Shown here one piece after another: positions 8,301 through 28,875 of a stretch of 32,000 nt of DNA; positions within the stretch are counted from its first letter, which is position 1; each line of letters opens with the position of its first letter. A program made the position numbers and the translations under genes. The stretch covers positions 43,992-75,991 of the forward strand of contig NZ_CP101322.1 in NCBI RefSeq assembly GCF_024300625.1. The letters are read 5' to 3'. This DNA comes from Halovivax gelatinilyticus (GTDB lineage: Archaea > Halobacteriota > Halobacteria > Halobacteriales > Natrialbaceae). Under the pieces are notes generated by a model. It had not been told where the DNA came from, searched no databases, and saw only the letters and a program-made list of their open reading frames with translations.

Positions 8301-9013
8301 TCCATCAACGACCGGACGTCTTCGGACGATTGGGGAGGAGTCCGGTTCGCGTGAGCAGCGTCGAGGTTAGCGAGGAGGGACTTTCTCGCATCCTCTGGAG
8401 TGATGCAGAACTCGCGGCACTTCTGCTGGGCCGTCCGAATCATTTCGCGAACCGTTGCCGGCGGATACGGCCGCCAGGACTCGTCCGGATACGCGTTCTC
8501 TAACCGCCCGAATTCCGCCCGGTGGGTGGTACGGAGGTCGGCGAAGATTTCGTCCCGGATTTCTTCGAGATCGGCGCTCGATTCCAGCTCGAAGTTCGGG
8601 GGCAAATCCATCTCCGTCGCAGCTTCGCCGAGCAATTCGTTGAAAAGCGAATCGATCGTCCGAATCTGGCTGTCGGTCTCCAACCATCGGAACACGTCGG
8701 CCGGAAGCTCGCCGTCGGCGTCCACGTGATTCCGAAGTACCTCCCTGAGGTCTTCTCTGAGTTCACTCGCGGCATCTCGTGTGAACGTCGTGAGGAGAAT
8801 GGACGAGAACGGGTTCGTACCGTCGGCTGCCGTTTCGACGATGACCTCCGCGACCGTCGTTAACATCGTCGTCGTTTTTCCCGTTCCCGCGGCGGCGTCG
8901 ACGGCGACCCGACCGGTGCCCTCGTGGAACGCCTCGATGACCGCGGCTTGATCCTCTACCGGAGTGTCGTCATCCGGTCCGAACTGAAGCGACATCTCTT
9001 CGACGTAGCTCAC
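5324..9013 (-). CDS. AddA-like UvrD-family helicase with C-terminal PD-(D/E)XK nuclease and Cys cluster
   Basis: Walker A AAAGTGKTTTML, FVFVDEFQDTSAAQ, LLAIGDVKQSIYQWRSAD, TLTTIHAAKGLEYPIVFLV, VAFTRAEDHLF. Nuclease motifs GTTVHKVLE, TGEIDLLYEADGVWHLADYKTT; Cys residues at ECPRRY and CGSCPYAFSRGGPC. Confidence 0.92.
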   Translation of the reverse strand: MSYVEEMSLQFGPDDDTPVEDQAAVIEAFHEGTGRVAVDAAAGTGKTTTMLTTVAEVIVETAADGTNPFSSILLTTFTRDAASELREDLREVLRNHVDADGELPADVFRWLETDSQIRTIDSLFNELLGEAATEMDLPPNFELESSADLEEIRDEIFADLRTTHRAEFGRLENAYPDESWRPYPPATVREMIRTAQQKCREFCITPEDARKSLLANLDAAHANRTPPQSSEDVRSLMETVVFDGADLSVTADDDDATERAREAFVDHVADTYERSHQLVEDFATILDAYEQLYDELTHERGHLTYQDATHLLRTFVEDNPDHPFVESLRRRFDFVFVDEFQDTSAAQCRVLRELVTDVGGRTRLLAIGDVKQSIYQWRSADPSIFGEIVGRAREAGEEGGRIPYLEVEDVVYRPLTSNFRSHPDLITAANGLFGELFEDAGRGDFGDVNVTYNDVSPKGPRKSWDDDFPHVHMLLLDFGLGDDFPSRGEDWTPVEAQEVAARIAAMVAGETDVSVFEGIDEDEGIEERTPKPGDVTLLFQARTHMHRYVDALSAYGIDAAPKATDDLFEQPEVTLLIDVLYWFTNPHDKASLMRILRSPFVACSDRTIRAIAGEGFYLGKFLEDGAWPTDLPEADRKRLKALVELRDDLRWDREGSKTDLLNRIIRHSAFDAVVLTGEDGIRRYGNVWALTQIIDGWEEEELLPYREFVERLTRLRNRAEETGEPDHTVAEVTDPEDEETVTLTTIHAAKGLEYPIVFLVDALRSWDSPPLQADRLVSDRDRGLALRPVASDRPLPNAVSFESPEDNLDTWMNEDRDAGRYPDLTGPIWISNDVDEDTGEFTYANPLNEFLAPSRAEFWRVLYVAFTRAEDHLFIGVADVPDWVENFTRWTTWATTINETLLPDASWGELDDIVEFDTRDGAVPIGVDDVPRASPTSHNPITVDDVDRHLDADPTNRTEIIPYRPNRISPSRIHDLVECPRRYQYRHVQEVASVYGGGPALDRDGEPVEEASTPGGVAPNKWGTTVHKVLEYRLLGRDQLARYANTLDPEIREYALWIVEAMERDSDRYRAALSADEVYPEYTVSTTLEIDDTTVTVTGEIDLLYEADGVWHLADYKTTDVHDADSYAGGKYARQLRTYAWLLERTYDVEVGDLTLLYVDVDEDSRAVDITPVTVEREGDVDDYEEELRYDLRSVAVKPPEGLSARPTETRCGSCPYAFSRGGPCEHGE

Positions 9014-12000
9014 CAGTCCTCACCCCCGCTCTCGTCGGCTCCATCGCGAGTTGGAACGCCACACAAATCACGGAAGGAGCACCCCTCACAGCCACCATTA
9101 TTGACAAACTCCTCGCTTACTGCGTACGTCACGGTTTCGTTCTCGGGCGTCATCGAGTCGAGCAGTTCTTCGAGCTCTTCACGCCACATGTCGGTCCGTT
9201 TCTCGAAGATGGTGGATCCGTTCGTTCGGACGTATTGTTCGTGAGGAACGAGTTCGATGTCGTCACCCAGGAGAAAGCCCTGCCGGCCGTTCGGACCGCT
9301 GGCATAGCGGTCGAGGAGGAACGCACCACCAGCCTCATCGATGGCGCTTGCTCTCGCCCGCGTGTCGATGGAATGCTTCGTCGGGATGGAACACTGATCG
9401 AGCCGTTCGCACGACCAGCACACTCTCTCCGCTCGTTCTGGTCGGAGCGTTCCGGTCCAGCAGTGTTTAAGGGCCGCCCGAGCCCCGCCCTGTCTTCCGC
9501 TCTGAAAGACAGGCACTGGGTCGTCGATGTCGGAGATTGTGTCGACTCTATGTGGTGGGATTACGAGCTTGTGGTCACCGACCTCGACGCGCTGCTCTCC
9601 GCGCCAGGACCAGGACCGATCGATCCCGGACTCGAGTTCCTGAGTGACGGTCAGATATTCGCCGACGAGCGCCTGGAACACGGATTCGTCGAGTTCGTCA
9701 TCCTCCCCGAGCCACATCTCGAAGTCGGATCGGAGCGCGGCGACGTCGTCGTAAGCACCGAGATCCGCCTGTCTATTCGGCAAGTGCGTCGTCACAAGCT
9801 GCTCGACCGCTCTGCGGTACGACGGAGGCACGTAGTGGTTTCCCACCACCGCTGGCACCGTCGGATACAATTCGCGTGCGTAGGGCGACTCCTCTTCCGG
9901 CCAGTCATCCCTGTTAAGCTCGGGGCCGTCGCGAGCGACGAGGAACTGATAAAAGTAGTACTTTAGATCACACTGTCCCATCAGATCGACCTCGTGTGGT
10001 CGGATCGGCGCGCCGACGACATCCGCGAGGGACAGGTCGCCCTCGAACGCCGGCTCGTCGGCCGATACCGTGACCGTCGTCTTCGGGTGGCGGAATCGCT
10101 CGCGCCGCGGAGCGATCTGGGAACGGTAGACTGGACCGTCGGCGTTCGACAACAGGCGAATCGCATCGGTCTCCGATTCGATCGCTCCGTCGCTCGGGCG
10201 GAAAACGGCTCCGGTAGAGTCGCGTTCACAGTGGTACGAAAGAAGGCGAAGGCGATCTCTCATCGGTCCTGTATCGGTTACGTCCGCCCGGTCCCGATGG
10301 TGCGTCTCGGACGGGAGCCAGTGGCTCTGTCGCACACGTTCGTACCCGCGGTCAGCTTCGTCGAGGACGTCCGTTAGCGATGCCACGAACGGCGACCAAG
10401 AGACTCGGTCGCCGGACGAGTCACGGGCGTGCCGACTGATCGTAATCCCTTCCGTGGCCGTACGAACCGCTGCTTCGTAGTCGTCGAGTTCCCGCCGATA
10501 CATCGCCTCCCCGCCGGGGAGGTATAACGGCGATGCATCCGTGGGACCCTCTGACGCGTACTGCTGGACGGTCTGGGAGAGCGCGTCGTGAAGAAAGGTC
10601 GGCGTTGGATGTTGTGCCGGGAACTCACCAGCTCCGACGCCGAGTAAGTATGCGCGTTTCGCCGATAGGAAGTAGGTGTTCGCCGGAATGACGACTCGAA
10701 CGGCGTTACCATCGGCATTGGAAGTAGCGTATTGGCTGCGACCGACAACGTCTCCGAGCGCCTGAGCGGCGAGATCCCACCCTGGTTCGGCAAGATCGAG
10801 ATCACGAAGGTAATCGTAGTACGAACCGACGCCGGCAAGCTCGTCGGCGACGCGCTCGGCGAGGTGAGACGGGTGCTTTCGGATGACGTCCGTGCGCGTT
10901 GTATCGACGCCGGGACCGCCCGACCTGCGGACTGGAGCGTCAGCTACGTGAACGACGTGTTGTTGGCACAGCCCGTCCAGGAGTGTCGTCACCTCCTCGC
11001 CCTTAACAGGGGCGCTCTCAGCCCGTTCGAGTGCCCAGGAGAGGAAGTAAACAACTTGTCGCCAAACCTCGCTCTCACCTTCCCGTTCGAGAGCCGATTT
11101 TCGCCACTCATCGACGGTACGTCGCTCTAATCTGGCGCCGGTAGTTATGGCGTGGAGACGCTCCTCGAGTAGGAGGAACGAAGCGTCGTCGAGGGGCCAG
11201 TCGCCGGGTGCGTCCTCGAGCGGGCAGAATCCGAGCCTGAGCGGGTCGACAACGTCGTGGTACGATACCGCATCGCCTTTGGCCGCCGCTGCGATGAGAT
11301 CGACGGTCGCCTTTAAAAATCGGTACGCGACCACCTGCGCGAGCGGCCGGTCCGATTCGATGTGGTACGGCAGTCCGTACGTGGTGAATACGTCATCGAT
11401 GATCGCCTCGTACTCGCGCGTCTCCCGTGGGATGACGAGATGCTCACCGGGAGTCACCGAACCCTCGCGGACGTTCGAGGCGATATCCCGTGCGACGCGT
11501 TCGACCTCTCGACGTCGGTCTGGAGCGTCCAAAAAGCGAACTTCGTCAGGAATCCCGTCCGGACGCGAGCCTTCGACGGCGGCCTCTACGAGATTCTCCG
11601 CAAAGAAGGAAGTATTCGAGGACTCCAACGAGGCAATCCTTACGTCGATACCCGTACGTCGGAATCTATCCGCGAGTCGCTCCCGGGAGCCTACGCCGAA
11701 AAAGAAACGAAGTTCGGGTCCGTCCTCGAGGTCGTCGAGCTCGCGGAAGAATCTGAGCATCGTATTGTCAACCGATTTTATCGTTCCGACTGCAACCCAC
11801 TCGACGTCACCGAAATGCCGATTCCACTCCTCTTGGAGCACGTCTCGGGCCGCCCGCGTCAGATGCGATTCTGAAAGGAATACCTCTGGTGGGAGGGGAT
11901 CGGTTCTGTCACGGAGAACGGCGGTCAGCGCGGCAAGCCCGGCCAACGCTCGCTTATTTCGGTGACACGCAAAGGGATCATCCAACCGGGCCGTCGCTTC

Positions 12001-12444
12001 GGCAAGTCGTTCGTGATCGTTGCCGGCATCGGTCGCGCGCCAATATCGATCCAGCTCGGTTCCGAGCGTTTCGTATAGTTCATCATCCCACGTATCCCCG
12101 ATCGATCCAATTAACGCGCGGAGTGCCGTGGGAGCGTCCTCCGCTTGCGCGTCTTCGACGACGCTCCGGAGAAGGCGCTCGGCAACGCGTTGATTCAGGA
12201 TACGCGGATCGCCATTATATCGCTGATCGAGCAGGCTTCGCGAGACGCTCTGAAGCGTCTCGTATTCCGCGACCTGACTCGGTTGAACGCCGCGTTCGAT
12301 CAGTCCCTCTCGAAGGTTCCGCATTGAACGCGCCCCGACGAGCAAACAAAGACCGTTTCCGGAATCGCCAACTGACCGGGGCTGGTCTTCCGCCTTTTCC
12401 CTAAGATACTGAAGTAAAGACCCGGCAGAGACCAGTGTCGCCAT
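9010..12444 (-). CDS. AddB-like protein, partner of the downstream AddA-like gene
   Basis: 1144 aa with inactivated-helicase-like architecture; C-terminal GQCDLKYYFYQF...CEGCSFRDLC Fe-S/nuclease-like region; 4-nt GTGA overlap with the AddA-like ORF. Confidence 0.75.
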   Translation of the reverse strand: MATLVSAGSLLQYLREKAEDQPRSVGDSGNGLCLLVGARSMRNLREGLIERGVQPSQVAEYETLQSVSRSLLDQRYNGDPRILNQRVAERLLRSVVEDAQAEDAPTALRALIGSIGDTWDDELYETLGTELDRYWRATDAGNDHERLAEATARLDDPFACHRNKRALAGLAALTAVLRDRTDPLPPEVFLSESHLTRAARDVLQEEWNRHFGDVEWVAVGTIKSVDNTMLRFFRELDDLEDGPELRFFFGVGSRERLADRFRRTGIDVRIASLESSNTSFFAENLVEAAVEGSRPDGIPDEVRFLDAPDRRREVERVARDIASNVREGSVTPGEHLVIPRETREYEAIIDDVFTTYGLPYHIESDRPLAQVVAYRFLKATVDLIAAAAKGDAVSYHDVVDPLRLGFCPLEDAPGDWPLDDASFLLLEERLHAITTGARLERRTVDEWRKSALEREGESEVWRQVVYFLSWALERAESAPVKGEEVTTLLDGLCQQHVVHVADAPVRRSGGPGVDTTRTDVIRKHPSHLAERVADELAGVGSYYDYLRDLDLAEPGWDLAAQALGDVVGRSQYATSNADGNAVRVVIPANTYFLSAKRAYLLGVGAGEFPAQHPTPTFLHDALSQTVQQYASEGPTDASPLYLPGGEAMYRRELDDYEAAVRTATEGITISRHARDSSGDRVSWSPFVASLTDVLDEADRGYERVRQSHWLPSETHHRDRADVTDTGPMRDRLRLLSYHCERDSTGAVFRPSDGAIESETDAIRLLSNADGPVYRSQIAPRRERFRHPKTTVTVSADEPAFEGDLSLADVVGAPIRPHEVDLMGQCDLKYYFYQFLVARDGPELNRDDWPEEESPYARELYPTVPAVVGNHYVPPSYRRAVEQLVTTHLPNRQADLGAYDDVAALRSDFEMWLGEDDELDESVFQALVGEYLTVTQELESGIDRSWSWRGEQRVEVGDHKLVIPPHRVDTISDIDDPVPVFQSGRQGGARAALKHCWTGTLRPERAERVCWSCERLDQCSIPTKHSIDTRARASAIDEAGGAFLLDRYASGPNGRQGFLLGDDIELVPHEQYVRTNGSTIFEKRTDMWREELEELLDSMTPENETVTYAVSEEFVNNGGCEGCSFRDLCGVPTRDGADESGGEDW

Positions 12445-12535: not shown

Positions 12536-14542
12536 TTATTGGGTGTCCACCGGACTGGTCGCACGGTCGTCCAGGTAGTCCAATAATTCTTGAATGTTGT
12601 CATTCCTGAAAAACTCGGTGAGCTGTAATGCCTGGGGAGATTCAGGAAATACCACTCCTTGACCGTATTCGTCAAACGCGTCCTCGATAACTCGCCTGTA
12701 CGTTTTGCTCGTCACGTAACCAATAATCTCGTCGAATTGATCGCCGTAGCGTTCGAGGTACTGTGAGACGCGACCGGTGACCAATTCGATCTGATCGGTG
12801 TCCTCTTTCGCGAGAACGTAATCATACTCCAATATTGGCTGTTCTCGCTCGAACTCTTCGGGCACGGGTCCGTACATTCCCGAAATTGTAACTTTATGTA
12901 CGGCTTCGCTCAGAGACCCAAGTTTATCGAACAAGATTGAATGAGTCCGCGAACGCGAGTAGGGCTTTTGCTGGCTGCACGGGACAAATAGAAGGATGTC
13001 TTTCTCCCTAGGAGGCTCGTACGATTGGGTGCTAACGTTGAAATCGTTCGGACTATGTTTGAGCGAGATTTGACGCGTGCCAACGGATTCGTCGATTCCG
13101 GCACCCCACTTGGAGAGCTTCGACTGATCGCTCGCCAACGTTGAACCTGGGAGGAGATCGTACGCGCCACGGGACTCGAGTACGTTTTTAAGTCGTTTGT
13201 TTCGAAGTTGAGCCTGCTTGAGCCCGCGCTTGATGTCATCGTGTTCTCTTGCAAACTCAACAACGTACTCTAGCAGTCGTCCCTCTCGAATAGCCCCGCG
13301 GACGCGTCCGAGTTCCTCATTGTACACTTCGAAGTTGTGCCGAGCAAGGAGCGCATAGTAATCACTTTTGATATTTTTCCCGTTCTCTTTTCTACGCTGT
13401 CGTTGCTCGTAGCTCAGATCGGTGTTGAGTTCTTTGACCAACCGGTCATAACTCACACCCCCATCTGAACACAGGAGACAATTCGGGAGATCGCACGGAT
13501 AACTTCTGTCCGGTCCTAGGTACTGATCTAGATCAGATAGTTTATGAGTCGTCCATGTCTCAGGATGGAGATACTTTTTATACTGTGCAGTATGCATGTG
13601 GGTTGAACAGTCAAACGTATCGACACCAAGAAGGGAGAGCAGGCCAACCTGTTTTCCACCCACACCGAAAACGTGGAGGCCGATTTCGTCCGAACGGGCT
13701 TCCGGAATAGCGTCTTTTGCTCCCTGAACGATATCCACCAATACATCGATACTATCTCGAAGCGGAACGAGCGATCCTACGGCAAATCCTTGGAACGAAC
13801 TGTCGATATCGAGTTTGTCGACACGATCGAGAAAGTTCCCAACGTACCAATTGACCGTTTCGTAATCGTGTCCGTGAAGCGCGACATATACGCTCGGCTC
13901 GTCACCAGCCGCCTGCCGCTCTCGCAAGTGATCCGCTGCGCGGCTGTTGATCGGGAACTCATCGTCGAGGAGATTTGGTTTATCGAGAAGGCGGAGACAT
14001 TCCACTGCGCTATCTATACTCCGATTCATCCGCTCAACTTTCTCTTCTTCTTTAAGATTCGGTGGAATTGGATAATCGAGGGTCGCAACTATGTCGGCCC
14101 CAAAGTCGAGCTGTAGACCGAGTATGCTTTTTGGGTCCGTGTAAAGTCCCCACTCGTTTGGGACACCGCCCTTCTCTGGAGCCTCGCCAAATGTGTTGGA
14201 ATTCATCAGCTTGAAACCGCCAGAATCGATGAAGATGGGGGCGTCGAGACGGTTGAAGCGCTCGTGAAATGTCTTTGGTCTCCAAAAGTCATTCAGATTG
14301 TTCGGAGATACGCCGTAGTCGGTGAAGCTCATCGCCTGAAACATTATCCCTTGAAGATGCTCCTTGTCGATGAGCTTATCCCGCATTCGACGCCAGACAC
14401 CGCCGGACTTCTCAGTAGTACCGCCGATAAGATTGACGACCGGGAACAATGCAGGCGTCTCTACGGGGCCGTGCGTCACATCTAATTCCCCTAGGCGGCC
14501 AAAACCGTCATCACCCACCGTCTTCACCCGAAAGGACGCCAT
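12536..14542 (-). CDS. TGT/DpdA-like transglycosylase fused to an ArcS-type DUF5591-like domain (DpdA-like candidate)
   Basis: IFIDSGGFKLMN, IVATLDYPIPPN, FAVGSLVP and GVDTFDCSTHM give the TGT active-site Asp positions. Zn-site-like CDLPNCLLC...RHNF. C-terminal PCSQQKPYSRSRTH fits PC-x3-KPY-x2-S-x2-H. No apparent PUA domain. Confidence 0.87.
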   Translation of the reverse strand: MASFRVKTVGDDGFGRLGELDVTHGPVETPALFPVVNLIGGTTEKSGGVWRRMRDKLIDKEHLQGIMFQAMSFTDYGVSPNNLNDFWRPKTFHERFNRLDAPIFIDSGGFKLMNSNTFGEAPEKGGVPNEWGLYTDPKSILGLQLDFGADIVATLDYPIPPNLKEEEKVERMNRSIDSAVECLRLLDKPNLLDDEFPINSRAADHLRERQAAGDEPSVYVALHGHDYETVNWYVGNFLDRVDKLDIDSSFQGFAVGSLVPLRDSIDVLVDIVQGAKDAIPEARSDEIGLHVFGVGGKQVGLLSLLGVDTFDCSTHMHTAQYKKYLHPETWTTHKLSDLDQYLGPDRSYPCDLPNCLLCSDGGVSYDRLVKELNTDLSYEQRQRRKENGKNIKSDYYALLARHNFEVYNEELGRVRGAIREGRLLEYVVEFAREHDDIKRGLKQAQLRNKRLKNVLESRGAYDLLPGSTLASDQSKLSKWGAGIDESVGTRQISLKHSPNDFNVSTQSYEPPREKDILLFVPCSQQKPYSRSRTHSILFDKLGSLSEAVHKVTISGMYGPVPEEFEREQPILEYDYVLAKEDTDQIELVTGRVSQYLERYGDQFDEIIGYVTSKTYRRVIEDAFDEYGQGVVFPESPQALQLTEFFRNDNIQELLDYLDDRATSPVDTQ

Positions 14543-14607: not shown

Positions 14608-15102
14608 CTAATCAGGATCCGTCACCGATTGGATTTGATCTGATATCTGGACAGTTGTGTACTCTGCGGCCTCAGTCCAGGAACTCTGCCATTCGTTTCC
14701 TTGTTTCGGCGGCTCCAGCGGAAATTCTACTGGATGATACGAGAGGTCGTCAATAGCCCCCGCTGCGATGGCTCCGACGAACTCCGCATTTTTCCGTTTC
14801 GATGAAACACCACCGCTAGCCAAGTCATAATAATTTGTGAATATTTGTGCGACGAGTACGATATCTACGTCAGTTCTTTCGTTGGTAAGATGACGGAAAA
14901 TCTTCGCAGAATTGTCGGCAGGATCAGCTCGCCTCCACTCCAATTCCAAGAGCACGAGCAGTTTGTCGTTTTCTCCACCGATGTCTACCGGTGTTCCGGC
15001 TAGATCATATTCAGTCTGCCATGACAAGCTAGTATTCGATTCACTGAGTCGGTTGTATATGTACGTCTGTACCTTCGAAGCAAATTCACCCATGTCGATC
15101 AA
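14608..15102 (-). CDS. Small protein with possible PD-(D/E)XK nuclease-like core
   Basis: TEYDLAGTPVDIGGENDKLLVLLELEWRRADPADNSAKI resembles D...ExE with a following Asn/Lys helix. It is coupled to the upstream GHKL ATPase. Start is TTG 15102 (4-nt overlap) or ATG 15093. Confidence 0.5.
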   Translation of the reverse strand: MIDMGEFASKVQTYIYNRLSESNTSLSWQTEYDLAGTPVDIGGENDKLLVLLELEWRRADPADNSAKIFRHLTNERTDVDIVLVAQIFTNYYDLASGGVSSKRKNAEFVGAIAAGAIDDLSYHPVEFPLEPPKQGNEWQSSWTEAAEYTTVQISDQIQSVTDPD

Positions 15103-16664
15103 TCGTCGGCGACGGCTCGCGGTGACATTGGTTCAATGTGGTGGCTGAGTGGCAATATCTCGACATAGGTAGGGTTCTCATCCCCGTAAAGTAGGCCGTT
15201 TTCCTCTAGATCAATCTCGATGTCTTCGCCGAGATACCCTTGCCGTTCGTATTCTCGTAACACCACCGGGTCCCCGTGATCCCAGCAAATTATGAGATCT
15301 ACTTCCTCGAACGTCAGCTCCTCATTGAAGTGATTTGTCAATGAACAGTGAACAGCCGCATTGCGAAGTTTCCCGTTCTGACGTGCAATCGCGTGTACGT
15401 CCGAATCCGGCTCGTAATCTTCGACAGAAATCTGTCCTGGTAAGGTATTCTCGTTCTCCCGTGCGAGCGTGAGTAGGACCTCAGTTCGATTCGATGGCTC
15501 ACCGGAGTCCCCCGATTCCACGCGCTCTCGTCGGAGCTTGAGTGAGGCACGGCGGTTCCGAGCTCGGCGTTTAATCTCCGCTTCTCGTCGGATTTCAAGA
15601 TATTCTTTGAACCACGGATCTTGTGCCACTTTCGATAGATGAAATTCGGTCGCTTCTTTGAGCGCCTGGAACACAGGGCTCGATTTATTTCGAATCGTTT
15701 CACGATTGGCTGATAATTCGATATCTTGGCAGTTCACAACAAAGAAGAAGTGAAGGAATTCATTGTCATGAGAGATTGCCTCGTTCAGCCGTTCAACCTT
15801 GATGTGATCCTTTGCAAGCCAGACACCGAACTGTGCGGAATGCTTTCCATAGGTAGGAAGCTCGTTTCGAGCGGCTTTCCCACCGACCATTCCAGTGATG
15901 TGGAGCGTCGTCGTGCCACCATCGTAATCGGCTTCGACCTCTGTCGGTCCGTAGTGTTTACACATTCGCTCGGCAGGGAAATCTGACGAGTAATCGGGCT
16001 CAAGTTGTTCGTTCGGGAACTCAAGTCGGTTCTTCGTCTCAACTTCCGGATATGAATCGTCTATTTCGTCACCAAGACGAACAGTGATGTCCATTTCGTG
16101 CTGATCGTCCTCGAACATGTGTGCCGTCGAGCCGGCGATAGTTTTCCACTTTAGATAATGTTCGATCTTATTATAAGTGAGTGATTCCGGATCGAATCCC
16201 TGACCGGATCGGAAATTGTGGATTCTGATCCTCGTTCCCTTGTGAAGATTGCTTACAGGTGTTTCAGTGACTTCGTACTCAGGAAGTACCCGGTTGTTAA
16301 GTTTTTTCCAAGGGTCACTCATCACCGCCCGGAGGTTGGTGCCATCATGGACGGTATTGACGACGATCTCATCGCTTTTGTAGAATATTTTCGTCCCATG
16401 ACCTTTGTACCCTATCGAATCCGTCTTGCGCGAATTCCCCAAATCGAAAAAGGATTCGAGGTCACGGAGGTCCATGCCGTCTCCATCGTCATCGATGATG
16501 ATGTCAGAGCCCATCTCTCGACTTTTAATCTCGATTTCAATATTTGAAGCATTTGCATCGTACGAGTTCGATAGCGATTCCCGGATTACCTCAAGCGGGT
16601 CCTCGAAGTCGCTCGCAATTTCGAGGAACTCGTTCACTTCGTTGACCTTTGGAGCTTTTTTCAT
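15099..16664 (-). CDS. GHKL (HSP90/MutL/MORC-like) ATPase domain protein
   Basis: N-box VIRESLSNSYDANA, IIIDDDGDGMDLRDL (DxGxG), SIGYKGHGTKIFYKSD, and GTRIRIHNF. 4-nt ATGA overlap with the preceding TGT-like gene. Confidence 0.88.
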   Translation of the reverse strand: MKKAPKVNEVNEFLEIASDFEDPLEVIRESLSNSYDANASNIEIEIKSREMGSDIIIDDDGDGMDLRDLESFFDLGNSRKTDSIGYKGHGTKIFYKSDEIVVNTVHDGTNLRAVMSDPWKKLNNRVLPEYEVTETPVSNLHKGTRIRIHNFRSGQGFDPESLTYNKIEHYLKWKTIAGSTAHMFEDDQHEMDITVRLGDEIDDSYPEVETKNRLEFPNEQLEPDYSSDFPAERMCKHYGPTEVEADYDGGTTTLHITGMVGGKAARNELPTYGKHSAQFGVWLAKDHIKVERLNEAISHDNEFLHFFFVVNCQDIELSANRETIRNKSSPVFQALKEATEFHLSKVAQDPWFKEYLEIRREAEIKRRARNRRASLKLRRERVESGDSGEPSNRTEVLLTLARENENTLPGQISVEDYEPDSDVHAIARQNGKLRNAAVHCSLTNHFNEELTFEEVDLIICWDHGDPVVLREYERQGYLGEDIEIDLEENGLLYGDENPTYVEILPLSHHIEPMSPRAVADD

Positions 16665-17908
16665 TGGAAGTACCCCCCGAGCGAGTGGTTAACTACTCGA
16701 TGAGCAGACTCTCGAGTTGGTTTATCTTGTGCAACAGTGCCTTCGATATACTCGACCAACGATGACGAATCACCTGATTTGACCCGTTGGCGAACCTCTT
16801 CGATCTCTCGTTTTTGAATGATTAAGTTGTGCATAGCTACCGGCCCCAACATGTCTTTTTTATATGGAGCATTTCCACGCATCCACCTTCGCATGTGCTG
16901 AGACGAGCATACTGGGCAATCACACTCGTCAAAATTCGCTTCATTAACGTTCACCGTCTCCATAAGTGATAGGAAATATCCACCGTTGATCGCATTTTGC
17001 AAGTACGTCGATGAATCGAAGGTGTCTACGCCAAGCGCAACAAGTAATGGGACGGCTCTGCTGGAAATTCCGAGAACGTGCAACGGTAATTTGTCGAAAC
17101 CCCAATCGTGTAGCACTTCGTGGCAATCGATTACAGCGTCGATTAGGGCCGACCGATTGTCCTTCATTGGTACGAGACTACCAAGGGCAATTCCGTCGAA
17201 AGACGACCGAAGCTTTTCCGCGCTCACATAGTCAGTTATCTCGGTGAGGAAAGCGTCCATCATCGAGTAGTTATATCCGTGTAAAGTGAGGTACCGGGCC
17301 CCGGTATACTCGTCAGACAGGTCAAGAAATATCTCGATGTTTTTTCCCGTTTTTCGGGCTTTTTCGAGCCGTTCCTCGTGAGTATCGGACGGCGTTATCG
17401 GGTGGTCGAGATTGACGATGATATCACCACCCATTCGTTTCTGTATCTCGAATACTTTCGCTTGATCGATATCCTCTTGGAAGTCGCTTCCATCCAGGCT
17501 TTCATTATTTAAGAATTTGAATCCACCAGAGTCTAGGAAGATAACTCCGTTAAAAGGTGAAAACACCTCTCGTTCTTTTATCGGTTCATAGACATAGTCG
17601 GCATATCGTTCTTTTGAGACGTTGTAGTCGGTGAGGGACGAAACGGAGGTCATGACCGCATCAAAGAATTTCGCGTATGCATCATCCCCCCCAATTCGGT
17701 CAGCTCCGATCATAAACTCCTTGACCGTTCGATGGATACCCCCGCCGTAAACACTATTCTCGGTACCGCCACCGTAAAAATTTACGACCGGGAATAGGTT
17801 TGGTGTTTCAATTACCGAGTCACCAATTGTCAGCTTACCAGCACGGGCGTCTCCCACCGTCTCCGAAACCTCAAAATTTGCCGAATAACTTGTCTTTGAA
17901 TATGACAT
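16661..17908 (-). CDS. Short TGT/DpdA-like transglycosylase (second paralog)
   Basis: VIFLDSGGFKFLN, IIVNLDHPITP, IALGSLVPM, GVDTFDSSTYL. Zn motif CDCPVC-x25-H matches the CxCx2Cx25H pattern. Confidence 0.87.
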   Translation of the reverse strand: MSYSKTSYSANFEVSETVGDARAGKLTIGDSVIETPNLFPVVNFYGGGTENSVYGGGIHRTVKEFMIGADRIGGDDAYAKFFDAVMTSVSSLTDYNVSKERYADYVYEPIKEREVFSPFNGVIFLDSGGFKFLNNESLDGSDFQEDIDQAKVFEIQKRMGGDIIVNLDHPITPSDTHEERLEKARKTGKNIEIFLDLSDEYTGARYLTLHGYNYSMMDAFLTEITDYVSAEKLRSSFDGIALGSLVPMKDNRSALIDAVIDCHEVLHDWGFDKLPLHVLGISSRAVPLLVALGVDTFDSSTYLQNAINGGYFLSLMETVNVNEANFDECDCPVCSSQHMRRWMRGNAPYKKDMLGPVAMHNLIIQKREIEEVRQRVKSGDSSSLVEYIEGTVAQDKPTRESAHRVVNHSLGGYFQ

Positions 17909-18369
17909 TAGTTAACCTTCCTAATACCCGACTCTTCGCCTTGAAGGAACTGTTTGAGCGAGCGCCCCTTCAAACCGATACCATCTCCCTGTACCAGGTA
18001 TGTCTCAACATCTAGTCCTTCATCAAATCCGTCAATGGCCCTTCGATACTCTTTACCAGCGTTAATGACAACTCGTTTATATTGTTTCTCGGTGACCCGA
18101 TTTTTCAGCTCATTCCTTACTTTTGGTCCGAGCTCTTTTGCCCTGTGAGAGTCCATTCTTCGGTCATACGGAGAGATTGGTTCTTCAGGATCGATGATAC
18201 CGTGTTTCGCAGATAGAATACATAAGTCACAATCAGAATATCCGCCTCCCTCTCCCATCGATTTTTTGATAATTTTGAAGAAGTATCCAGAATACAGTTC
18301 GAGGGCAGAGACGGGTTTATCCGGCTCGATTTTGGACTTCGAGCAAGATTGAACGAGCAGCGTCGACAT
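17908..18369 (-). CDS. DUF6884-like standalone protein, probable partner of the short TGT-like protein
   Basis: LLVQSCSKSKIEP, LCILSAKHGIIDPEEPISPYDRRM. TAATG stop/start overlap with the downstream TGT-like gene. Confidence 0.72.
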   Translation of the reverse strand: MSTLLVQSCSKSKIEPDKPVSALELYSGYFFKIIKKSMGEGGGYSDCDLCILSAKHGIIDPEEPISPYDRRMDSHRAKELGPKVRNELKNRVTEKQYKRVVINAGKEYRRAIDGFDEGLDVETYLVQGDGIGLKGRSLKQFLQGEESGIRKVN

Positions 18370-18583: not shown

Positions 18584-19282
18584 TTAATTCATAAAGGACC
18601 TAGGACGTTCACTGTACTCGATTGGATCCCTCGATCCGACGCTTCTGAACGAATCTAGCCGCAACGCACAGGAGTCACAAATCCCACACGCCGGCGCTTC
18701 GTCCCGGTAACACGACCACGTGAGTTCGTACGGAACCTCAAGTTCGAGACCCCGCCCAGCGATTTCCGTCTTCGACCACTCGACGAACGGTGCGACCAGA
18801 TCGATCTCTGTTTCGGGTTTCGTACCGACGTCAACGACCCGCTGGAAGGCGTTAAAGAACTCCGGGCGGCAATCAGGATAGCCTGCGAAATCCTCCGAGT
18901 GCGCACCGATGAACACCGCGGAGCAGTCGTTCGCTTCGGCGTACGAAACAGCCATCGCTAACAGATTCGCGTTCCGGAACGGAACGTACGATGTCGGGAT
19001 TTCGTCGCTCTCAAGGTCCGCATCGGACACCTCAATTTCGTCGTCGGTAAGGCTAGAGGCACCGATTTTCGACAGATGGCTCGTCTCAATGTGCAGAAAG
19101 TCCGCCGCGTTTACTTCCTCTGCCAGCGCTTTCGCGCACTCGTATTCCTTGTTCTCGGTTCGCTGCCCGTACGAGGTATGTAAAAAGTACGGTTGGTAGT
19201 CGCGGTCGATCGCTTCGTAGACCGCGGTCGCACTGTCCATCCCACCTGAAACCAGTATTGCTGCGCGTACGTCGTTACTCAT
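18584..19282 (-). CDS. queC: 7-cyano-7-deazaguanine (preQ0) synthase QueC
   Basis: PP-loop ILVSGGMDSATA, YGQR, SCYRDEAPACGICDSCALR Zn site. Confidence 0.95.
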   Translation of the reverse strand: MSNDVRAAILVSGGMDSATAVYEAIDRDYQPYFLHTSYGQRTENKEYECAKALAEEVNAADFLHIETSHLSKIGASSLTDDEIEVSDADLESDEIPTSYVPFRNANLLAMAVSYAEANDCSAVFIGAHSEDFAGYPDCRPEFFNAFQRVVDVGTKPETEIDLVAPFVEWSKTEIAGRGLELEVPYELTWSCYRDEAPACGICDSCALRLDSFRSVGSRDPIEYSERPRSFMN

Positions 19283-19877
19283 GTGTGTCCACCGCCGAGC
19301 GGAATCGCCACTGTTCGTTTTCGGTCAACTCACCGACTGTAAACTGCGTCGTCGTCTCCGTGGCCGCCTCGACTCCGCGCATTGCTTCGCAGAGGTGCGT
19401 CGCCGCAAGTTCAACCCGTACAGCCTCGGCGTTCACTTCGTTGGCTAACCCTGATGCGATGTCCTGGGTCAGTTTCTCCTGTATCGTCAACCGCCTCGAT
19501 CGCCACCGAACGTAGCGGGCGAGCTTCGAGAGACCGACGACCTCGTCCTTCGGACGATACGCTATGTGAGCAACACCGTGGTACGGTAGCATGTGATGCT
19601 CGCAAAGACTGTACACCGAAATTCCCGTTTTGATCACGAGTTCACCGCTTTCAGCTGCGAAGGTTCGCATCTCGGGTTTCGCCGACTCTCGCTGCCCTTC
19701 TGTGAGTGTCTCGAGAGACGCCGGCATTCGGCGCTGCCAGGTATCCGTCAGTTCTTCGCGGTTAGGATCCTCTCCCAGCGCCTCCAGTAGCATCCGCGTG
19801 GCACGCTGGGCTTTCTGCCAGTCAATGTCGGACGTTTCACTGCTCTCCATGCTCGGTTGCTGGTGCTGTCTTGTCAT
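19275..19877 (-). CDS. folE: GTP cyclohydrolase I (FolE type IA)
   Basis: SVYSLCEHHMLPYHGVAHIAY, VGLSKLARYV, RLTIQEKLTQDIA, AATHLCEAMRG. ORF track starts at 19898; the ATG at 19877 forms an ATGA overlap with the queE stop. Confidence 0.94.
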   Translation of the reverse strand: MTRQHQQPSMESSETSDIDWQKAQRATRMLLEALGEDPNREELTDTWQRRMPASLETLTEGQRESAKPEMRTFAAESGELVIKTGISVYSLCEHHMLPYHGVAHIAYRPKDEVVGLSKLARYVRWRSRRLTIQEKLTQDIASGLANEVNAEAVRVELAATHLCEAMRGVEAATETTTQFTVGELTENEQWRFRSAVDTHE

Positions 19878-20650
19878 GTTCCTGGTTCGTCGTTCCACAG
19901 ATCGACGTGCAGTCGCGGCGTGTAGCGATAGCCACGCTCAAGTGCCAATTCGGCGATCTCGTTTCGTGTGTCGTCCAGTTCGTCTCGGGTCGCCCCTTCT
20001 GGCATCAACAAAACGTCGTCATTGGTCACTGCCGTATCGGTCAACTCTCGGATCTGGCTAACGAGATAATCGACTTCGGACAAATCGTGCGCTTCAGTAA
20101 CGACGAACTTCAATTGGCTATCGTACTGGTCGATCAGCCTTCCGAGCGCTTCGAGATCGATACGCTGTTCTTCATGTCTTATCTCCCACTCCCCGTCTCC
20201 CTTCGGGGCGCGATCGGGTGTGGGTGTACTGCTCGCGAGTTTCGGACTAATGCTCGCCAAATCGATCGTTGCATCTCGATAGGTGGTGCCATTCGTCTCC
20301 ACGGTAGTGTGATAGCCGTGATCGCCCAGTTCGTCCAGGAGTTGGACAGAGCGTTCGTGGATCATCGGTTCCCCGCCGGTCAAGACGACGTGATCCGCGT
20401 TTTCGTACGTGAGAACTTCGTCGATGATATCGTCGATTGTAAGCCATGCTCCGGTCGGTTCCCAGGAGGTGTGGTAGGAGTCGCAAAACCAACACCTGAG
20501 GTTGCAGCCCGACGTTCTGACGAACACAGAGGGGACACCGGCGAGTTTGCCCTCTCCCTGTAACGAGCAGAAGAGTTCGTTTATCGGAAGACCCTCACCT
20601 TCACCAGCGTGTTCGGTGGCGAGTTCCGAAACGTCGCTTGTGACCGGCAT
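19874..20650 (-). CDS. queE: 7-carboxy-7-deazaguanine synthase QueE (radical SAM)
   Basis: LFCSLQGEGKLAGVPSVFVRTSGCNLRCWFCDS has the CxxxCxxC motif; VLTGGEPMI. The ATG at 20650 forms a TAATG overlap with the queD stop; the ORF track starts upstream at 20665. Confidence 0.94.
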   Translation of the reverse strand: MPVTSDVSELATEHAGEGEGLPINELFCSLQGEGKLAGVPSVFVRTSGCNLRCWFCDSYHTSWEPTGAWLTIDDIIDEVLTYENADHVVLTGGEPMIHERSVQLLDELGDHGYHTTVETNGTTYRDATIDLASISPKLASSTPTPDRAPKGDGEWEIRHEEQRIDLEALGRLIDQYDSQLKFVVTEAHDLSEVDYLVSQIRELTDTAVTNDDVLLMPEGATRDELDDTRNEIAELALERGYRYTPRLHVDLWNDEPGT

Positions 20651-21111
20651 TAGTACGTCGCACAAAGTTCGTCAGTCTCTCGAACCGTCACGGATACGTT
20701 TGCGACGTTGTCCGGAAACACCTCCAGCATCCGTTCCTCGAGTAGAACGGACATCACTTCAGCTGTCGGTGGGTGCTGGAGTACGATGAGTGAATCAGCA
20801 TCGCCCGATCGTTCGAAGGCATCGATCAGCGGATCCCCTTCCTCAACGAGAAACATGTGATCCCAGTCGCCGATGACATCAGTTACATCTCCCTTGTCCA
20901 CGATCCAGCCTTCCTCCGCGAGATGACCGGTGATTTCCACCGTAATCTCGTAGTTGTGCCCGTGGGGCCGCGAGCACTTTCCGTCGTGGTGGAGAATCCG
21001 GTGACCCGTGCTGATCCGAATGGGTTTGTTTTCCCCGATTACGAGTGTCCGTTCTTCAGTGTTCGAAAGGAGGGCGCTACCAAAATCACCCCCAGATATT
21101 CTCTGTGGCAT
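20650..21111 (-). CDS. queD: 6-carboxytetrahydropterin synthase QueD
   Basis: STGHRILHHDGKCSRPHGHNYEITVEI, WIVDKGDV, WDHMFL, PPTAEVMS, VRETDELCATY. ATG 21111 (MPQRISGG) preferred over the track's GTG 21135 because a TATA-like box lies ~31-37 nt upstream. Confidence 0.9.
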   Translation of the reverse strand: MPQRISGGDFGSALLSNTEERTLVIGENKPIRISTGHRILHHDGKCSRPHGHNYEITVEITGHLAEEGWIVDKGDVTDVIGDWDHMFLVEEGDPLIDAFERSGDADSLIVLQHPPTAEVMSVLLEERMLEVFPDNVANVSVTVRETDELCATY

Positions 21112-21141
21112 ACCCAAAGAATATCCCGAGTGCACATAAGC

Positions 21142-22052: not shown

Positions 22053-25000
22053 ATGGTTGATACCGATGATCGGCCGGCAGTCACACTAAATCCGAGCGGT
22101 CTCGGCCAATACATCAGTTATTCTGGGTGTCCGCGATTTTTCAGACTGAAGTTTTTCGACCACGGCCTCGTGAATAAGCGAAACTGGTACGATCCGAACG
22201 CAGGTAGTGACCTTTTCGCAGAACTTGGGTTAGCCTACGAAGAAGAACAATTGAAAACACTCAGTGAGGATGCATCCCGAGTCATCGGGGACACTGACAG
22301 CGATGGTGATGTGATCCCATATGATGAGACGTGGGAAGACAATACGGGATCACACGGCGACATAGAAACGCAGTGGAAAGGTGGAGTCCGTGAACAGTTG
22401 ATCAATCTGATCGAGACCCTCGCAGATAGCGACCATGACGAGTTGGATGGACCCGTCGTGTTGTTCCAGACACCCATGTTTGGACGGATCGGAGTCTGGG
22501 ACATTGCTGGTATTGCCGATCTCATCACACTGGAACCGCTTCCGGAGAGTCGCGGCGTCCGAACTAGAGTTCTGGAGGTCAAGACGTCCTGGAAGGACAA
22601 GACATCTCAGCAGATTCAATCGACGATCTATAGTTTACTATTAAGCACGGTGGTTTCCGAGTGTGGCGTCGATCATGAACCCGTCGCCACAGTAGTTAAT
22701 CGTGAGGCAGACCTCCGCGAACATCCCCTGCCGGAACTCCCGCCGATCGATCTTCCCTCGCGGACCGCGGAGGTGAAACGCCTGTTGAAACAGGATGGTG
22801 AACTACACCAGTTAGCGCGAAAGTCGTTTGACGAGGTCGGGTATCGCCTCGAACGAAAATGCGACGGGTGCCCGTATAACGGGATTTGTTTCACGAAAGC
22901 AATTGAATCACGCGATCCAGCACTGTTGAACCTCACACAGGGGAATCAGGAACGGCTTCGAGTGCAGGGCATAGACTCGCTCGCGGGGTTGACCGACCTG
23001 TTTGAGCGAGAAGAGGGGACGAAACCGTATGATTACGACGAACTCCCAGTACGTGATGAGACAATCGTTCGTGCCTTAGAGAGTGAGGGAACCCTTTCGA
23101 ATCGCCTCGACGAAATCGTTCAACGGGCTCAGGTACTCCGTGGAGAACTCGATCCGTCGTACGACTCGTTCGGCGGCGTAGAGTACCTACGTGGCAGTGG
23201 GAACGGCAATCTCCCTGACGACGATCCGCATCCACGATTGCCCGGAGGGGCGTGTGAGCGCAACGAACTGATCCGGGTGTACCTGTACGTCCAGCACGAT
23301 CCCGTACGTGACCGGCTGGCGCTCTTGGCTGCTCGCATCAATTGTGACAAGACCGATGCGACGACCGTCGTTGAATTTAGCGAGCAACTCCCAGCGGCGA
23401 AAGACGATAGCCTCGACGCGGAAGCGAAGCTACTGGAAGCGTTTTTCGAACGGCTAATCAAAGCAATCCAGGGCATAAAAGCCGAGTTTGGCTCGAGTCC
23501 AGACCAGGGCTATGTCCATCTGTACACGTATTCCGCCCACGAACGGGACGCACTCATGGAGGGTGTTCAACGACAACCGTCCGTCTTTGGAAGCGCCGCA
23601 GTACGTGATCTTCTGGGACTACGAGAGGGACTCGACCAACCGATGGTGTCGGTCGTGCATAACGATATTACGAGTCGCTTGGCGTTACAATACCCGGGGA
23701 CAGGGCTCATCCAGACAGTCGAGCAAATGCAGGCGTTCGCCGACGAGTCCTATCCTCGACGCTGGTTTTCTGCTACCGATTGGAAAGCGACGATTGCTGG
23801 CGACGAAGTTGACCTTCGGGATGTATTCAGGACTGGGTTGTTCGAGGGGAAGCGAGCGTACGTCGAGGAGGGCAACTCGATCAGATTGCTCCTTGGTGAT
23901 CCAGGCGATCCGGATCGGGAGCCAGATGGCTTCTACCCACTGTACAATCGATTTGGAAATCAGATTCCCCTGGAGTACCTGTGGGCTGCTCGCGGTAAGT
24001 TAGACGATGATGTGGAACTCGGGACGGGCAGTTCGTCGCTCTCAACATATCGGTACTACGACGGGGAGGGCTCCAAACCGATCGGAGCCCCAGAAGTGAA
24101 AGCACTCGCACAGCGACTGACGGAAGCTCTCGAGCACGTCGAACGGGCGATCGCGTACAAGAACTGGCAAATCGATAAGCAACCACTCGATTTGAGCCGA
24201 CTGCCAGCCTTCTCGCTTGAAAATATTGAACTGAACCGTGCCTGCCAAGAGTATCTTGATCTGGAACACACGACGAACTATCGTGACTGTCTCGACCATT
24301 ACCTCAAACCGCCTCGAAAGCGCATGCAGACCGGCGATTCGACGATTTTCCGCGTCACGAACGTCGAACCTGCTGGCCAGTGGGATATCCGCGTCGAGGG
24401 CGATCTTCTCTATGACGAGTTGTTCCGAAATCCGGATCAGGTGATCGATAGTTGCCGGATCAGCGGCTCGGACGACGGCGGCTCCGGAAGCTGGCGAGTA
24501 ATGTCGAAACTCGAGCGCAACGGCAGGGAATTCAGACAAGTCAATGCGACATACCCGCGGTATCTGGCAAATTCGATCAAGGCATCCGTCGAGTCGTTCG
24601 ATCGAACCGGCAAAACGATCACGGTGAGTGCATCGACCCACGGTGGGTTCGGCCGCAGCCGGTACCTTGAGTGGCACCGGAGTGCAACGATGGAACCCGA
24701 GGAAGCCGACGGAGAGGATTACACGACGCTGGTCTCTGAAGGTGACCTCTTTGTGCTTGATCCGTACGCGGATTCTTACCCCGCGCTCAGAGCCTACGAA
24801 GCGCTCGAGCGGACGGAGTCGAACGCGTTGTACCACCAGTTGAACCGCGCGTTCCAGGACGGCGAAACTGAGCAGTTCGACCGGCAGTTTTGTTCGCCGA
24901 CCGCTGTTGCGGACTTCATCGAAACGTTCGAGGATGCGACGGGTGCGCGTCCCCGCGGGAACCAGGCGGAGTTCGTTAAGGAAGTTGACCACAGCGTCTC

Positions 25001-28688: not shown

Positions 28689-28806
28689 TGGTGCGTTGGT
28701 GGCGAGAGAGTCCGCATCCTAATGGGTGTTTCGACCACTAATCCACCGGTTCGAGGGACCTAATTCGCTGATCAACCCGGTTGAACAGCCCATTACACTT
28801 CCTTAA

Positions 28807-28852
28807 CGAGTTAACAGACACTATGATGCTACTATTTACTCTGTTAAGCTCG
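28807..28852. repeat. Imperfect inverted repeat in the divergent intergenic region
   Basis: CGAGTTAACAG (28807-28817) and CTGTTAAGCTCG (28841-28852) are reverse complements except for one extra base, separated by 23 nt. Confidence 0.7.
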
Positions 28853-28875
28853 TGTCGAAGTTGCTAGCCGAAGAA

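Follow-up and report, generated by a model that had tools for sequence, protein, structure and literature searches.

A haloarchaeal genomic island predicted to direct Dpd-like 7-deazaguanine modification of DNA, with a nuclease-motif-dead GHKL ATPase in the position of DpdB

Positions 14608-16664 of a 32,000-nucleotide stretch of Halovivax gelatinilyticus DNA (contig NZ_CP101322.1, positions 43,992 to 75,991; hereafter the window) encode, on the minus strand, a GHKL ATPase and a small protein with a predicted restriction endonuclease (RE)-like fold, and both genes lie between two genes of the tRNA-guanine transglycosylase (TGT) superfamily. We propose that the locus belongs to a horizontally mobile, haloarchaeal Dpd-like island for 7-deazaguanine modification of DNA in which a nuclease-dead GHKL clamp stands in place of DpdB, a reading to which we give an even chance of being correct. 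The conserved unit of the island is an operon of DUF6884, TGT, and GHKL genes, not a pairing of the GHKL gene with the gene of the small protein. Dpd-type 7-deazaguanine islands are known as such; what is new here is GHKL for DpdB, an arcTGT-like transglycosylase, an additional ArcS-like enzyme, and an archaeal host.

Results

The GHKL ATPase (521 amino acids [aa]; 15099-16664) and the small protein (161 aa; 14608-15093) of the window are 100% identical to database entries from H. gelatinilyticus (3.70-Mb contig). Each has hundreds of homologs at E<1e-45, and both open reading frames (ORFs) are genuine genes. They are members of one tight run on the minus strand, in the order QueD, QueE, FolE, QueC, DUF6884, TGT, GHKL, small protein, and ArcS-like. 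The G+C content of the run is ∼47-55%, compared to ∼60-64% in the adjoining AddAB-like genes. A preliminary description of this DNA had placed a GHKL ATPase and a small nuclease-like protein (14608-16664) between two TGT-like genes, had reported a 4-nt overlap between TGT and GHKL, and had suggested a second such overlap (15099-15102) if the small gene starts at a TTG. The placement is correct, with ORFs at 15099-16664 and 14608-15102 between a 415-aa TGT gene and a 668-aa gene that has TGT and DUF5591 domains, and so is the first overlap, with ATGA at 16661-16664 common to the TGT stop and the GHKL start. The second is not supported. Because 30 of 30 aligned homologs of the small protein start at the downstream Met or Val (MGxFA...) and the NCBI product is 161 aa, the start of the small gene is the ATG at 15093, leaving a 5-nt spacer to the stop of the preceding GHKL gene.

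The GHKL gene is part of an invariant triad. We surveyed GHKL homologs with one genome per species, which gave 33 archaeal loci (50-79% identity; mostly Halobacteria, plus two Nanohaloarchaeota and one Halorubrum plasmid) and 41 bacterial loci with distant relatives, and examined flanks of up to 10 kb. Counts out of 34 refer to the 33 GHKL-centered archaeal loci and the window; counts out of 36 add TGT-centered look-ups. DUF6884, TGT, and GHKL genes are colinear, in that order, in 33 of 33 GHKL-centered archaeal loci and in the window. The same triad is present in the TGT-centered look-ups, namely in L161 and in two metagenome loci that are almost identical to each other, L159 and L160, giving 36 of 36 archaeal loci overall. 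The intergenic gaps of the triad range from -11 to +31 nt and from -11 to +9 nt (34 loci measured), junctions of TGT and GHKL are mostly ATGA or TAATG, and TGT always directly precedes GHKL in archaeal loci. Of what had been predicted from the overlaps, tight coupling is upheld for GHKL and TGT but not for GHKL and the small protein, which are adjacent in 2 of 34 islands; a functional pair of GHKL and nuclease is not supported, the GHKL gene being tied to DUF6884 and TGT in every archaeal locus.

The GHKL protein begins with a Bergerat ATP-binding domain, which is followed by a transducer-like domain; a helical linker then leads to the C-terminal domain (∼394-505). Pfam HATPase_c_3 (51.7 bits, cutoff 25) and HATPase_c cover residues 23-150, in agreement with its earlier identification as a GHKL ATPase. 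The Bergerat motifs RESLSNSYDA, DDDGDGM, GYKGHGTK, and GTRIRI represent the N-box (ExxxNxxD), DxGxG, GxxGxG, and the Thr of motif IV. Residues E29, N33, D36, D59, G61, G63, and G85-K92 are invariant across 22 archaeal homologs and 14 bacterial relatives; at the level of sequence, the ATPase motifs are intact. The AlphaFold (AF2) model of the protein is of moderate quality (predicted local distance difference test [pLDDT] of 75.5), and in Foldseek searches it matched the N-terminal domain of MutL (MutL-NTD), Hsp90, GyrB43, SMCHD1, and MORC2 over 350-440 columns (E ∼1e-10 to 1e-9). As modeled, GHKL carries the two-domain GHKL and transducer ATPase module of dimerizing DNA or protein clamps. MutL (with MutH or Vsr) and eukaryotic MORC share this module and are among the best structural matches. 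Unlike MutL, the window protein lacks the C-terminal dimerization/endonuclease domain, having an unrelated domain there, and has a transglycosylase, not a mismatch sensor, as its operon partner; unlike MORC, it is devoid of CW and coiled-coil regions. It did not attain the cutoff of a curated family with the models of MutL (TIGR00585; 33 bits, cutoff 180, match confined to residues 21-73), BbrUII/HgiDII (NF050001; 41.7 bits, cutoff 550, N-terminal residues 26-153 only), or MzaB (17.7 bits, cutoff 850). The best NCBIfam and PADLOC matches of the N-terminal domain are restriction-enzyme families.

The C-terminal domain of GHKL has the topology alpha-beta-beta-beta-alpha-beta-alpha in the AF2 model. 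Nothing significant was returned for it either by profile search of the PDB or by scanning 15 members against Pfam. Its bacterial relatives (22-31% identity, 555-693 aa) are informative. In alignment, 14 of 14 exhibit the RE signature E...D...(V/I/L)E(L/F)K in this domain. The window protein keeps the E and D positions and reads AVHCS at the position of ExK, and the ExK is lost in 22 of 22 archaeal homologs, with an acidic residue there in 0 of 22 and a Lys in 0 of 22. Kept in all 14 bacterial and absent from all 22 archaeal proteins, the motif therefore identifies the archaeal branch, as far as alignment can tell, as a nuclease-motif-dead derivative of a GHKL-transducer-RE-nuclease lineage. 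The bacterial relatives stand alone, and in 0 of 41 loci is there a TGT neighbor detectable by tblastn; in the flanks scanned, their neighbors are type I HsdR, DUF499/DUF1156, OLD nuclease, and housekeeping genes.

Known proteins of similar design are paraMORC3, described as a GHKL-S5-RE-nuclease of stand-alone habit (Iyer, Abhiman, and Aravind 2008; PMC2292703), and VcSduA (GHKL-Shedu); like the window protein, both have a GHKL and transducer module followed by a C-terminal RE-fold domain. The bacterial relatives are like paraMORC3 as described, in that they stand alone and keep E-D-ExK. Unlike paraMORC3, with which it was compared by description only, the TGT-linked branch of archaea no longer has ExK and in no case stands alone. 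Unlike VcSduA, the window GHKL shows no DUF4263/Shedu match. The bacterial proteins with intact ExK (L034-L074; e.g., L042 6558-11773, L043 3600-11782, and L037 9986-13822) are from Myxococcota, Planctomycetota, Acidobacteriota, and other phyla. Several adjoin type I HsdR, DUF1156+DUF499/HEPN, or OLD nuclease genes, and these GHKL-RE proteins look like an uncharacterized single-gene defense family in their own right.

The genes around GHKL resemble those of a 7-deazaguanine pathway. FolE, QueD, QueE, and QueC make preQ0, and genes for all four are present beside the triad on the minus strand: QueD (20650-21135) and QueE (19874-20665), each the best NCBIfam match for its ORF but below cutoff, FolE (19275-19898; NCBIfam 169.6 bits, cutoff 162), and QueC (18584-19282; NCBIfam 181 bits, cutoff 150). 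The 415-aa TGT (16661-17908, minus strand; Pfam TGT 103 bits) is a DpdA-like transglycosylase. Aligned to the arcTGT of P. horikoshii, it keeps the aspartates of DSGGF, LDxP, and FDS and the CxCxxC...H zinc site, and it is without the C1, C2, and PUA tRNA-binding domains. The first gene of the triad encodes a DUF6884 protein of 153 aa (17908-18369, minus strand; Pfam DUF6884 61.5 bits, cutoff 30) with the CxxxK (CSKSK) and LSAxxG (LSAKHG) motifs defined in DUF6884/YaaA-like proteins (PMC11701544). Bacterial DpdC carries DUF6884 (GATOR-GC preprint), and the match of the archaeal protein to PADLOC DpdC is weak (0.0015). It is of the same domain family as DpdC, with a predicted YaaA-like fold; orthology would go beyond this assignment.

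The second TGT paralog is the 668-aa ArcS-like protein (12536-14542, minus strand), in which Pfam TGT is combined with DUF5591, the C1 catalytic domain of ArcS (75 bits). It scores 112.9 bits against NCBIfam ArcS NF040592 (cutoff 440), retains the TGT aspartates, has no PUA domain, and reads PCSQQKPYSRSRTH at the ArcS motif PCX3KPYX2SX2H (PMC5699537). By analogy to QTRT1/QTRT2, it and the 415-aa TGT could be the two subunits of a heterodimer, or it could have a transglycosylase activity of its own. The ArcS-like gene is found in 30 of 34 islands, upstream or downstream and in either orientation. The catalytic residues of the window TGT match those of the archaeal archaeosine pathway (arcTGT and ArcS), and the ArcS C1 motif is common to both; unlike the proteins of that pathway, those of the window are without PUA, C1, and C2 tRNA-binding domains. 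No DpdB/DndB-like match was found in the scanned ORFs of the window or in the annotated loci L159-L161, and neither DndB nor ParB ranks in the top 25 Pfam families, by frequency, in 115 flanking ORFs.

The small protein has no Pfam, NCBIfam, PADLOC, or PHROG family match. Its AF2 model is of higher confidence (pLDDT 91.9) and has the topology alpha-beta-beta-beta-alpha-beta-alpha-beta-alpha. Top matches among the predicted viral structures of BFVD are restriction endonuclease or endonuclease-like (E 7.8e-6, probability 1.0), and top matches in the PDB are all RE-fold nucleases (SfsA, the R2 RLE domain, Cdn1, OkrAI, Bax1, Can2, and BglII). The PDB matches are weak, with E of 1.6e-3 or worse, template modeling (TM) scores ≤0.46, and identity ≤16%; the query-normalized TM-score of 0.46 for OkrAI is among the highest. 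An exhaustive profile search recovered 184 cluster representatives. The RE-fold family that the protein defines has hundreds of members and is uncurated. Its profile matches the C-terminal nuclease region of NucS at E 0.53, and 47 distant relatives yielded only single marginal NERD and NucS_C matches. In 47 representatives, D37, E50, E52, and N61 never vary, and R55, P58, and K64 almost never do (K64 ≥90%). In the model, D37 belongs to strand 2 and E50-x-E52 to the last part of strand 3, with K64 on the helix that follows, a D...ExE variant of the motif. The pattern recalls D94/E111/E113 of BamHI, an isoschizomer of OkrAI, a resemblance that serves as a lead and not as a test. Judging from the model, the small protein does have a PD-(D/E)xK fold, which bears out the earlier nuclease-like assignment at the level of the fold, and it is probably an accessory small nuclease, putatively active. 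The type II enzymes BamHI, OkrAI, and BglII share its alpha-beta-beta-beta-alpha-beta RE core; unlike these, it has no cognate methyltransferase present and many of its family members are solitary beside aminoacyl-tRNA synthetase (aaRS) genes. Homology between the small protein and the C-terminal domain of GHKL was considered and rejected, as hhalign detected no sequence relationship (probability <1%).

In the islands, the small gene is a variable companion. In 10 of 34 islands it lies no more than 10 kb from GHKL, and in 24 of 34 it is beyond that distance or absent. It adjoins GHKL in two, the window and Natrinema mahii (L003), where it starts within the last 4 nt of GHKL; its position between two TGT genes, as first described, applies to these two and is not the general arrangement. 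Elsewhere, the small gene adjoins QueC, QueD, the ArcS-like gene, or DUF6884, in either orientation. It co-occurs with a DpdJ-like gene, which is present in 7 of the 10 loci that have the small gene versus 5 of the 24 that do not (Fisher p=0.015). A sample centered on the small protein comprised 83 loci (three genomes and 80 metagenome loci, the latter drawn by two peptide patterns, so that bias is possible). Island genes were near the small protein in 18 of the 83, and in 10 of 39 loci of at least 10 kb. Occurrence mainly away from TGT-like neighbors, which the preliminary description had named as an argument against its proposed pair, was thus found for one partner only, the small protein.

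Seventeen copies of the small protein adjoin a gene for leucyl-tRNA synthetase (LeuRS) or another class I aaRS-like protein. In a neighbor-joining tree (midpoint-rooted, no support values), 26 of 26 island-linked copies are in one clade of 46 leaves and 17 of 17 aaRS-adjacent copies are outside of it. Because island-borne copies form one clade, the looser, accessory link of the small protein to the island is real, and the small protein represents an island-type lineage of a widespread haloarchaeal family. Copies of the core type (L075-L157; e.g., L077 7040-10474, L085, L092, and L148) are directly beside aaRS genes: the neighbor is LeuRS in seven loci, with at least 69% identity to the LeuRS of L077, and in a further 10-11 loci it is another gene with 25-33% identity to LeuRS. 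Their conserved, aaRS-adjacent chromosomal position suggests a housekeeping role of the core-type lineage. Two loci, L081 and L152, combine an ArcS-like gene with a large helicase in the absence of a triad. We have retracted their interpretation as variant islands, since a matching TGT (P0417) is on record for a contig of 61,842 bp, equal in length to that of L081; the triad probably sits more than 10 kb from the small gene.

The triad is accompanied by restriction-like modules that differ between islands. At the left edge of the window, positions 1-72 have no stop codon and the ORF listed as 73-2727 (plus strand) extends past the edge. Its product aligns to residues 500-1358 of a 1361-aa helicase (31% identity, E 1e-100) that matches PADLOC DpdJ at 2.6e-49. 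The feature at 1-2727 is the 3' part of a gene for a DpdJ-like superfamily 2 (SF2) helicase of ∼1360 aa, encoding its C-terminal two-thirds; a reading of this product ("p884") as a new protein of unknown function is rejected. A gene for a phospholipase D (PLD)-like nuclease (2696-3163, plus strand) overlaps it by 32 nt. Its best match is DpdK (PADLOC 1.7e-15; NCBIfam 55.6 bits, cutoff 100), and the two genes are a candidate restriction module. On the other side of the minus-strand run, a 1476-aa protein (22053-26483, plus strand) combines a PD-(D/E)xK (Cas4-like) nuclease with a superfamily 1 (SF1) helicase (Pfam PDDEXK_1, AAA_11, AAA_12, and AAA_30), matches PADLOC MkoA (1e-41) and DpdJ (1e-18), and is a candidate restriction component.

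Across 36 archaeal loci, the DpdJ/K-like module is present in 13-15, a module with an MZB helicase in 15, a four-gene block with a weakly DpdH-like protein in 7-10, a module of a helicase and HHH/HNH-repeat proteins in 8-10, the SF1-nuclease module in three, and an AddAB-like module in one, the window. None of the tested restriction-like modules is within 10 kb in six loci. Pfam annotation of the flanks of 11 islands (115 ORFs) recovered SF2 helicases, PLD proteins, HNH-repeat proteins, MZB helicases, GmrSD, and integrases; two islands have a YhhQ-type Vut_1 transporter. With its preQ0 genes, DUF6884, and DpdJ/DpdK-like genes, the cluster is in the Dpd-like context that had been recognized at the outset.

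Other cargo is more idiosyncratic. The AddAB-like pair of the window (5324-12444, minus strand) consists of a gene for an AddA/UvrD-like protein of 1229 aa, whose C-terminus matches a Cas4-like nuclease, and one for an AddB-like protein of 1144 aa. The two overlap by 4 nt and are wedged between the DpdK-like and ArcS-like genes; the pair may represent an insertion peculiar to the window or else a restriction module of an alternative kind. The four-gene block encodes proteins of ∼233, 968, 277, and 305 aa without Pfam families (L159 12803-18156; also L011, L013, L016, L017, L021, and L161). It adjoins a DEAD/Helicase_C/MZB helicase of ∼1590 aa, and its 968-aa protein weakly matches PADLOC DpdH (3.3e-5); the block is probably another restriction module of the islands. 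The segment 3001-5204 of the window is low in G+C (∼43%) and has a 323-aa ORF with weak matches to PADLOC PDC-M34B and type I specificity subunits and a second ORF of 156 aa without matches. At 27120-31090, an AAA_14/DUF4143 ATPase (522 aa, minus strand) is near a 718-aa VWA-domain protein whose C-terminus weakly matches pPIWI_RE_REase, and these two may be further defense-island cargo.

The distribution of the island is patchy and low in G+C, and includes a plasmid and integrases. In Halorubrum xinjiangense (L025), the triad and preQ0 genes are on the 178-kb plasmid p1, and the DPANN Nanohaloarchaeota have triads at ∼50% identity (L029/L030); both are consistent with horizontal spread between hosts and symbionts. 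No tRNA gene, looked for as an island border, was found in the window. A 5139-bp contig assigned to "Streptomyces sanglieri" (GCM10009647) has adjacent GHKL and TGT genes (P0154 / P0438, consecutive locus tags) that are 60-65% identical to the haloarchaeal ones, and is most likely a contaminant or a misassigned haloarchaeal contig. Haloviruses such as HVTV-1, with viral DpdA4, also put 7-deazaguanines in DNA. Viral DpdA4 is reported as matching DUF6610, and it is by this reported description that it is set apart from the window TGT, a clear member of PF01702. A viral origin of the island was considered and rejected: IMG/VR yielded one distant GHKL relative and no TGT relatives among viral contigs, and PHROG matches are only to families of unknown function.

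Discussion

In many respects the archaeal island parallels bacterial Dpd, as represented by DpdA/DpdB/DpdC and DpdD-K of Salmonella Montevideo. Both have a TGT-superfamily enzyme beside preQ0 genes, a DUF6884-domain (DpdC-type) protein, DpdK-like PLD and DpdJ-like SF1/SF2 helicase genes, and an ATPase gene tightly linked to that of the transglycosylase, and both are island-like and horizontally spread. Unlike bacterial Dpd, the archaeal island has a GHKL and transducer ATPase with a degenerate RE-like domain where DpdB would sit, a TGT that is arcTGT-like and below the cutoff of the DpdA model, an extra ArcS-like TGT+DUF5591 protein, a short DUF6884 protein (153 aa), archaeal hosts, and a highly variable restriction shell. 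In bacteria, DpdA does not insert preQ0 in DNA unless DpdB hydrolyzes ATP; DpdB is ParB-like and has been proposed to be an NTP-gated dimeric DNA clamp, and DpdC then makes dADG (PMC10164549).

We suggest that the archaeal genes would act in a comparable sequence. The preQ0 made by FolE, QueD, QueE, and QueC would be the substrate of the 415-aa TGT which, free of tRNA-binding domains, would exchange it for guanine in double-stranded DNA. GHKL would be the obligate partner of this enzyme, an ATP-driven dimerizing clamp whose nuclease-dead, RE-like C-terminal domain may hold or select DNA. It would provide the ATPase function that bacterial DpdA receives from the ParB/DndB-like DpdB, and thereby occupy the slot of DpdB. 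The DUF6884 (DpdC-type) and ArcS-like proteins might then turn DNA-bound preQ0 into amide- or amidine-type derivatives. What the sequences show are the identities of the genes, a conserved operon, ATPase motifs that are intact, a nuclease motif that is lost, and a window without a DpdB homolog; DNA as the substrate, cooperation of the ATPase with the transglycosylase, and the chemistry of these later steps are what we infer. The variable helicase/nuclease modules and the 161-aa RE-fold protein would form a restriction shell, and the small protein would not be the partner of GHKL. We place GHKL in the predicted modification core because the triad never varies while restriction-like modules differ between islands. 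The preliminary description had offered that a clamp and nuclease sense unmodified DNA or license modification; with ExK lost and GHKL in the invariant core, the licensing half fits best. By extension, cellular archaea would have a Dpd-type system of their own, in which a GHKL clamp exapted from a stand-alone GHKL-nuclease lineage independently took the role of DpdB, a scenario that we advance tentatively and rate somewhat short of even.

Several points weigh against this interpretation. The island is known here from its genes, and DNA modification is a prediction. The TGT is closest to arcTGT, which acts on tRNA, and falls well below the threshold for DpdA (NCBIfam NF041059 27.7 bits, cutoff 200; PADLOC 8e-7). 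To our knowledge, DpdAs of phages act without a partner ATPase, and the need for one may therefore not be intrinsic. Linkage in an operon leaves open which step GHKL serves, and its relatives look like defense nucleases. The C-terminal domain is assigned as RE-like by topology and alignment, with no significant structural or profile match and a model of moderate quality. The absence of DpdB covers the window and flanks of up to 10 kb and whole genomes were not searched. Lastly, GHKLs of the paraMORC type have classically been placed on the side of restriction (PMC2292703).

The last point leads to the main alternative, that GHKL belongs to the restriction arm, as a paraMORC/MORC-like, ATP-driven looping or sensing clamp that detects unmodified DNA and activates nucleases in trans, with the 161-aa RE-fold protein, the DpdK-like PLD, or Cas4-like nuclease-helicases as effectors. 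Linkage of GHKL to TGT would then merely keep modification and restriction together. The bacterial relatives of GHKL stand alone as GHKL-RE nucleases, retain ExK, and often have HsdR, DUF499/DUF1156, or OLD genes as neighbors; the N-terminal domain best matches restriction-enzyme families, the GHKL-Shedu nuclease is a proven defense protein, a small nuclease-fold gene adjoins GHKL in the window, and Iyer et al. put paraMORCs in restriction-modification systems (PMC2292703). However, GHKL has lost its own nuclease motif in every archaeal member and is translationally coupled to a transglycosylase rather than to a nuclease or helicase. The candidate effectors vary, with six islands showing none of those tested within 10 kb and the small protein in only 10 of 34, and we consider this alternative rather unlikely. 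A second alternative, that of the preliminary description, in which GHKL and the 161-aa protein are a dedicated MutL/MORC-like clamp and nuclease analogous to MutL-MutH, draws on the arrangement in the window, where the genes adjoin on the same strand with a 5-nt spacer, and on the overlap in N. mahii. The RE fold and conserved acidic triad of the small protein suit it, and a nuclease acting in trans is conceivable for a GHKL that has lost its own motif. Against this are adjacency in 2 of 34 islands, 24 of 34 islands without a small gene inside 10 kb, placement elsewhere beside QueC, QueD, the ArcS-like gene, or DUF6884 in either orientation, a family whose members are mostly outside of any island and in many cases near aaRS genes, and the lack of a detectable sequence relationship to the C-terminal domain of GHKL. 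A dedicated pair is very improbable.

A different alternative has RNA as the substrate: the two TGT paralogs would be extra enzymes of the archaeosine pathway that act on tRNA or another RNA, and GHKL would be a chaperone-like ATPase. The affinity of the TGT to arcTGT, the ArcS catalytic motif retained in the 668-aa protein, the database label "tRNA-guanine transglycosylase", and the aaRS genes adjoining core-type copies of the small protein all point in this direction. Yet both paralogs are without PUA and C-terminal tRNA-binding domains, and their partners are of DNA type, namely a DUF6884/YaaA-like protein, an RE-derived domain, DpdJ/K-like helicase and PLD proteins, MZB helicases, and GmrSD. 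The distribution is also patchy, island-like, and low in G+C, with a plasmid and integrases. We regard an RNA-directed module as improbable, and favor DNA modification with GHKL as partner of the transglycosylase.

Published work covers bacterial DpdA, DpdA1-4 of phages and viruses, and the biochemistry of bacterial DpdABC. In what we searched, nothing links a GHKL ATPase to DpdA/TGT or describes a haloarchaeal cellular dpd cluster, in keeping with the earlier remark that no such pair is known from described Dpd clusters. It is still an open question why DpdA of bacteria depends on the hydrolysis of ATP by DpdB (PMC10164549). If our reading is true, an unrelated ATPase in the same operon slot would imply that the requirement for ATP is mechanistic and not an accident of one family, and ATP-driven clamping or remodeling of DNA would be a general need of cellular DNA transglycosylases that is met by two unrelated ATPase folds. 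The island would be the first 7-deazaguanine DNA system of cellular archaea, next to those of bacteria, phages, and archaeal viruses in the literature searched, and GHKL would be a clear case of a defense nuclease turned modification cofactor. The ∼415-aa proteins annotated as "tRNA-guanine transglycosylase" and the "ATP-binding proteins" of Halobacteria are probably mislabeled components of a DNA system.

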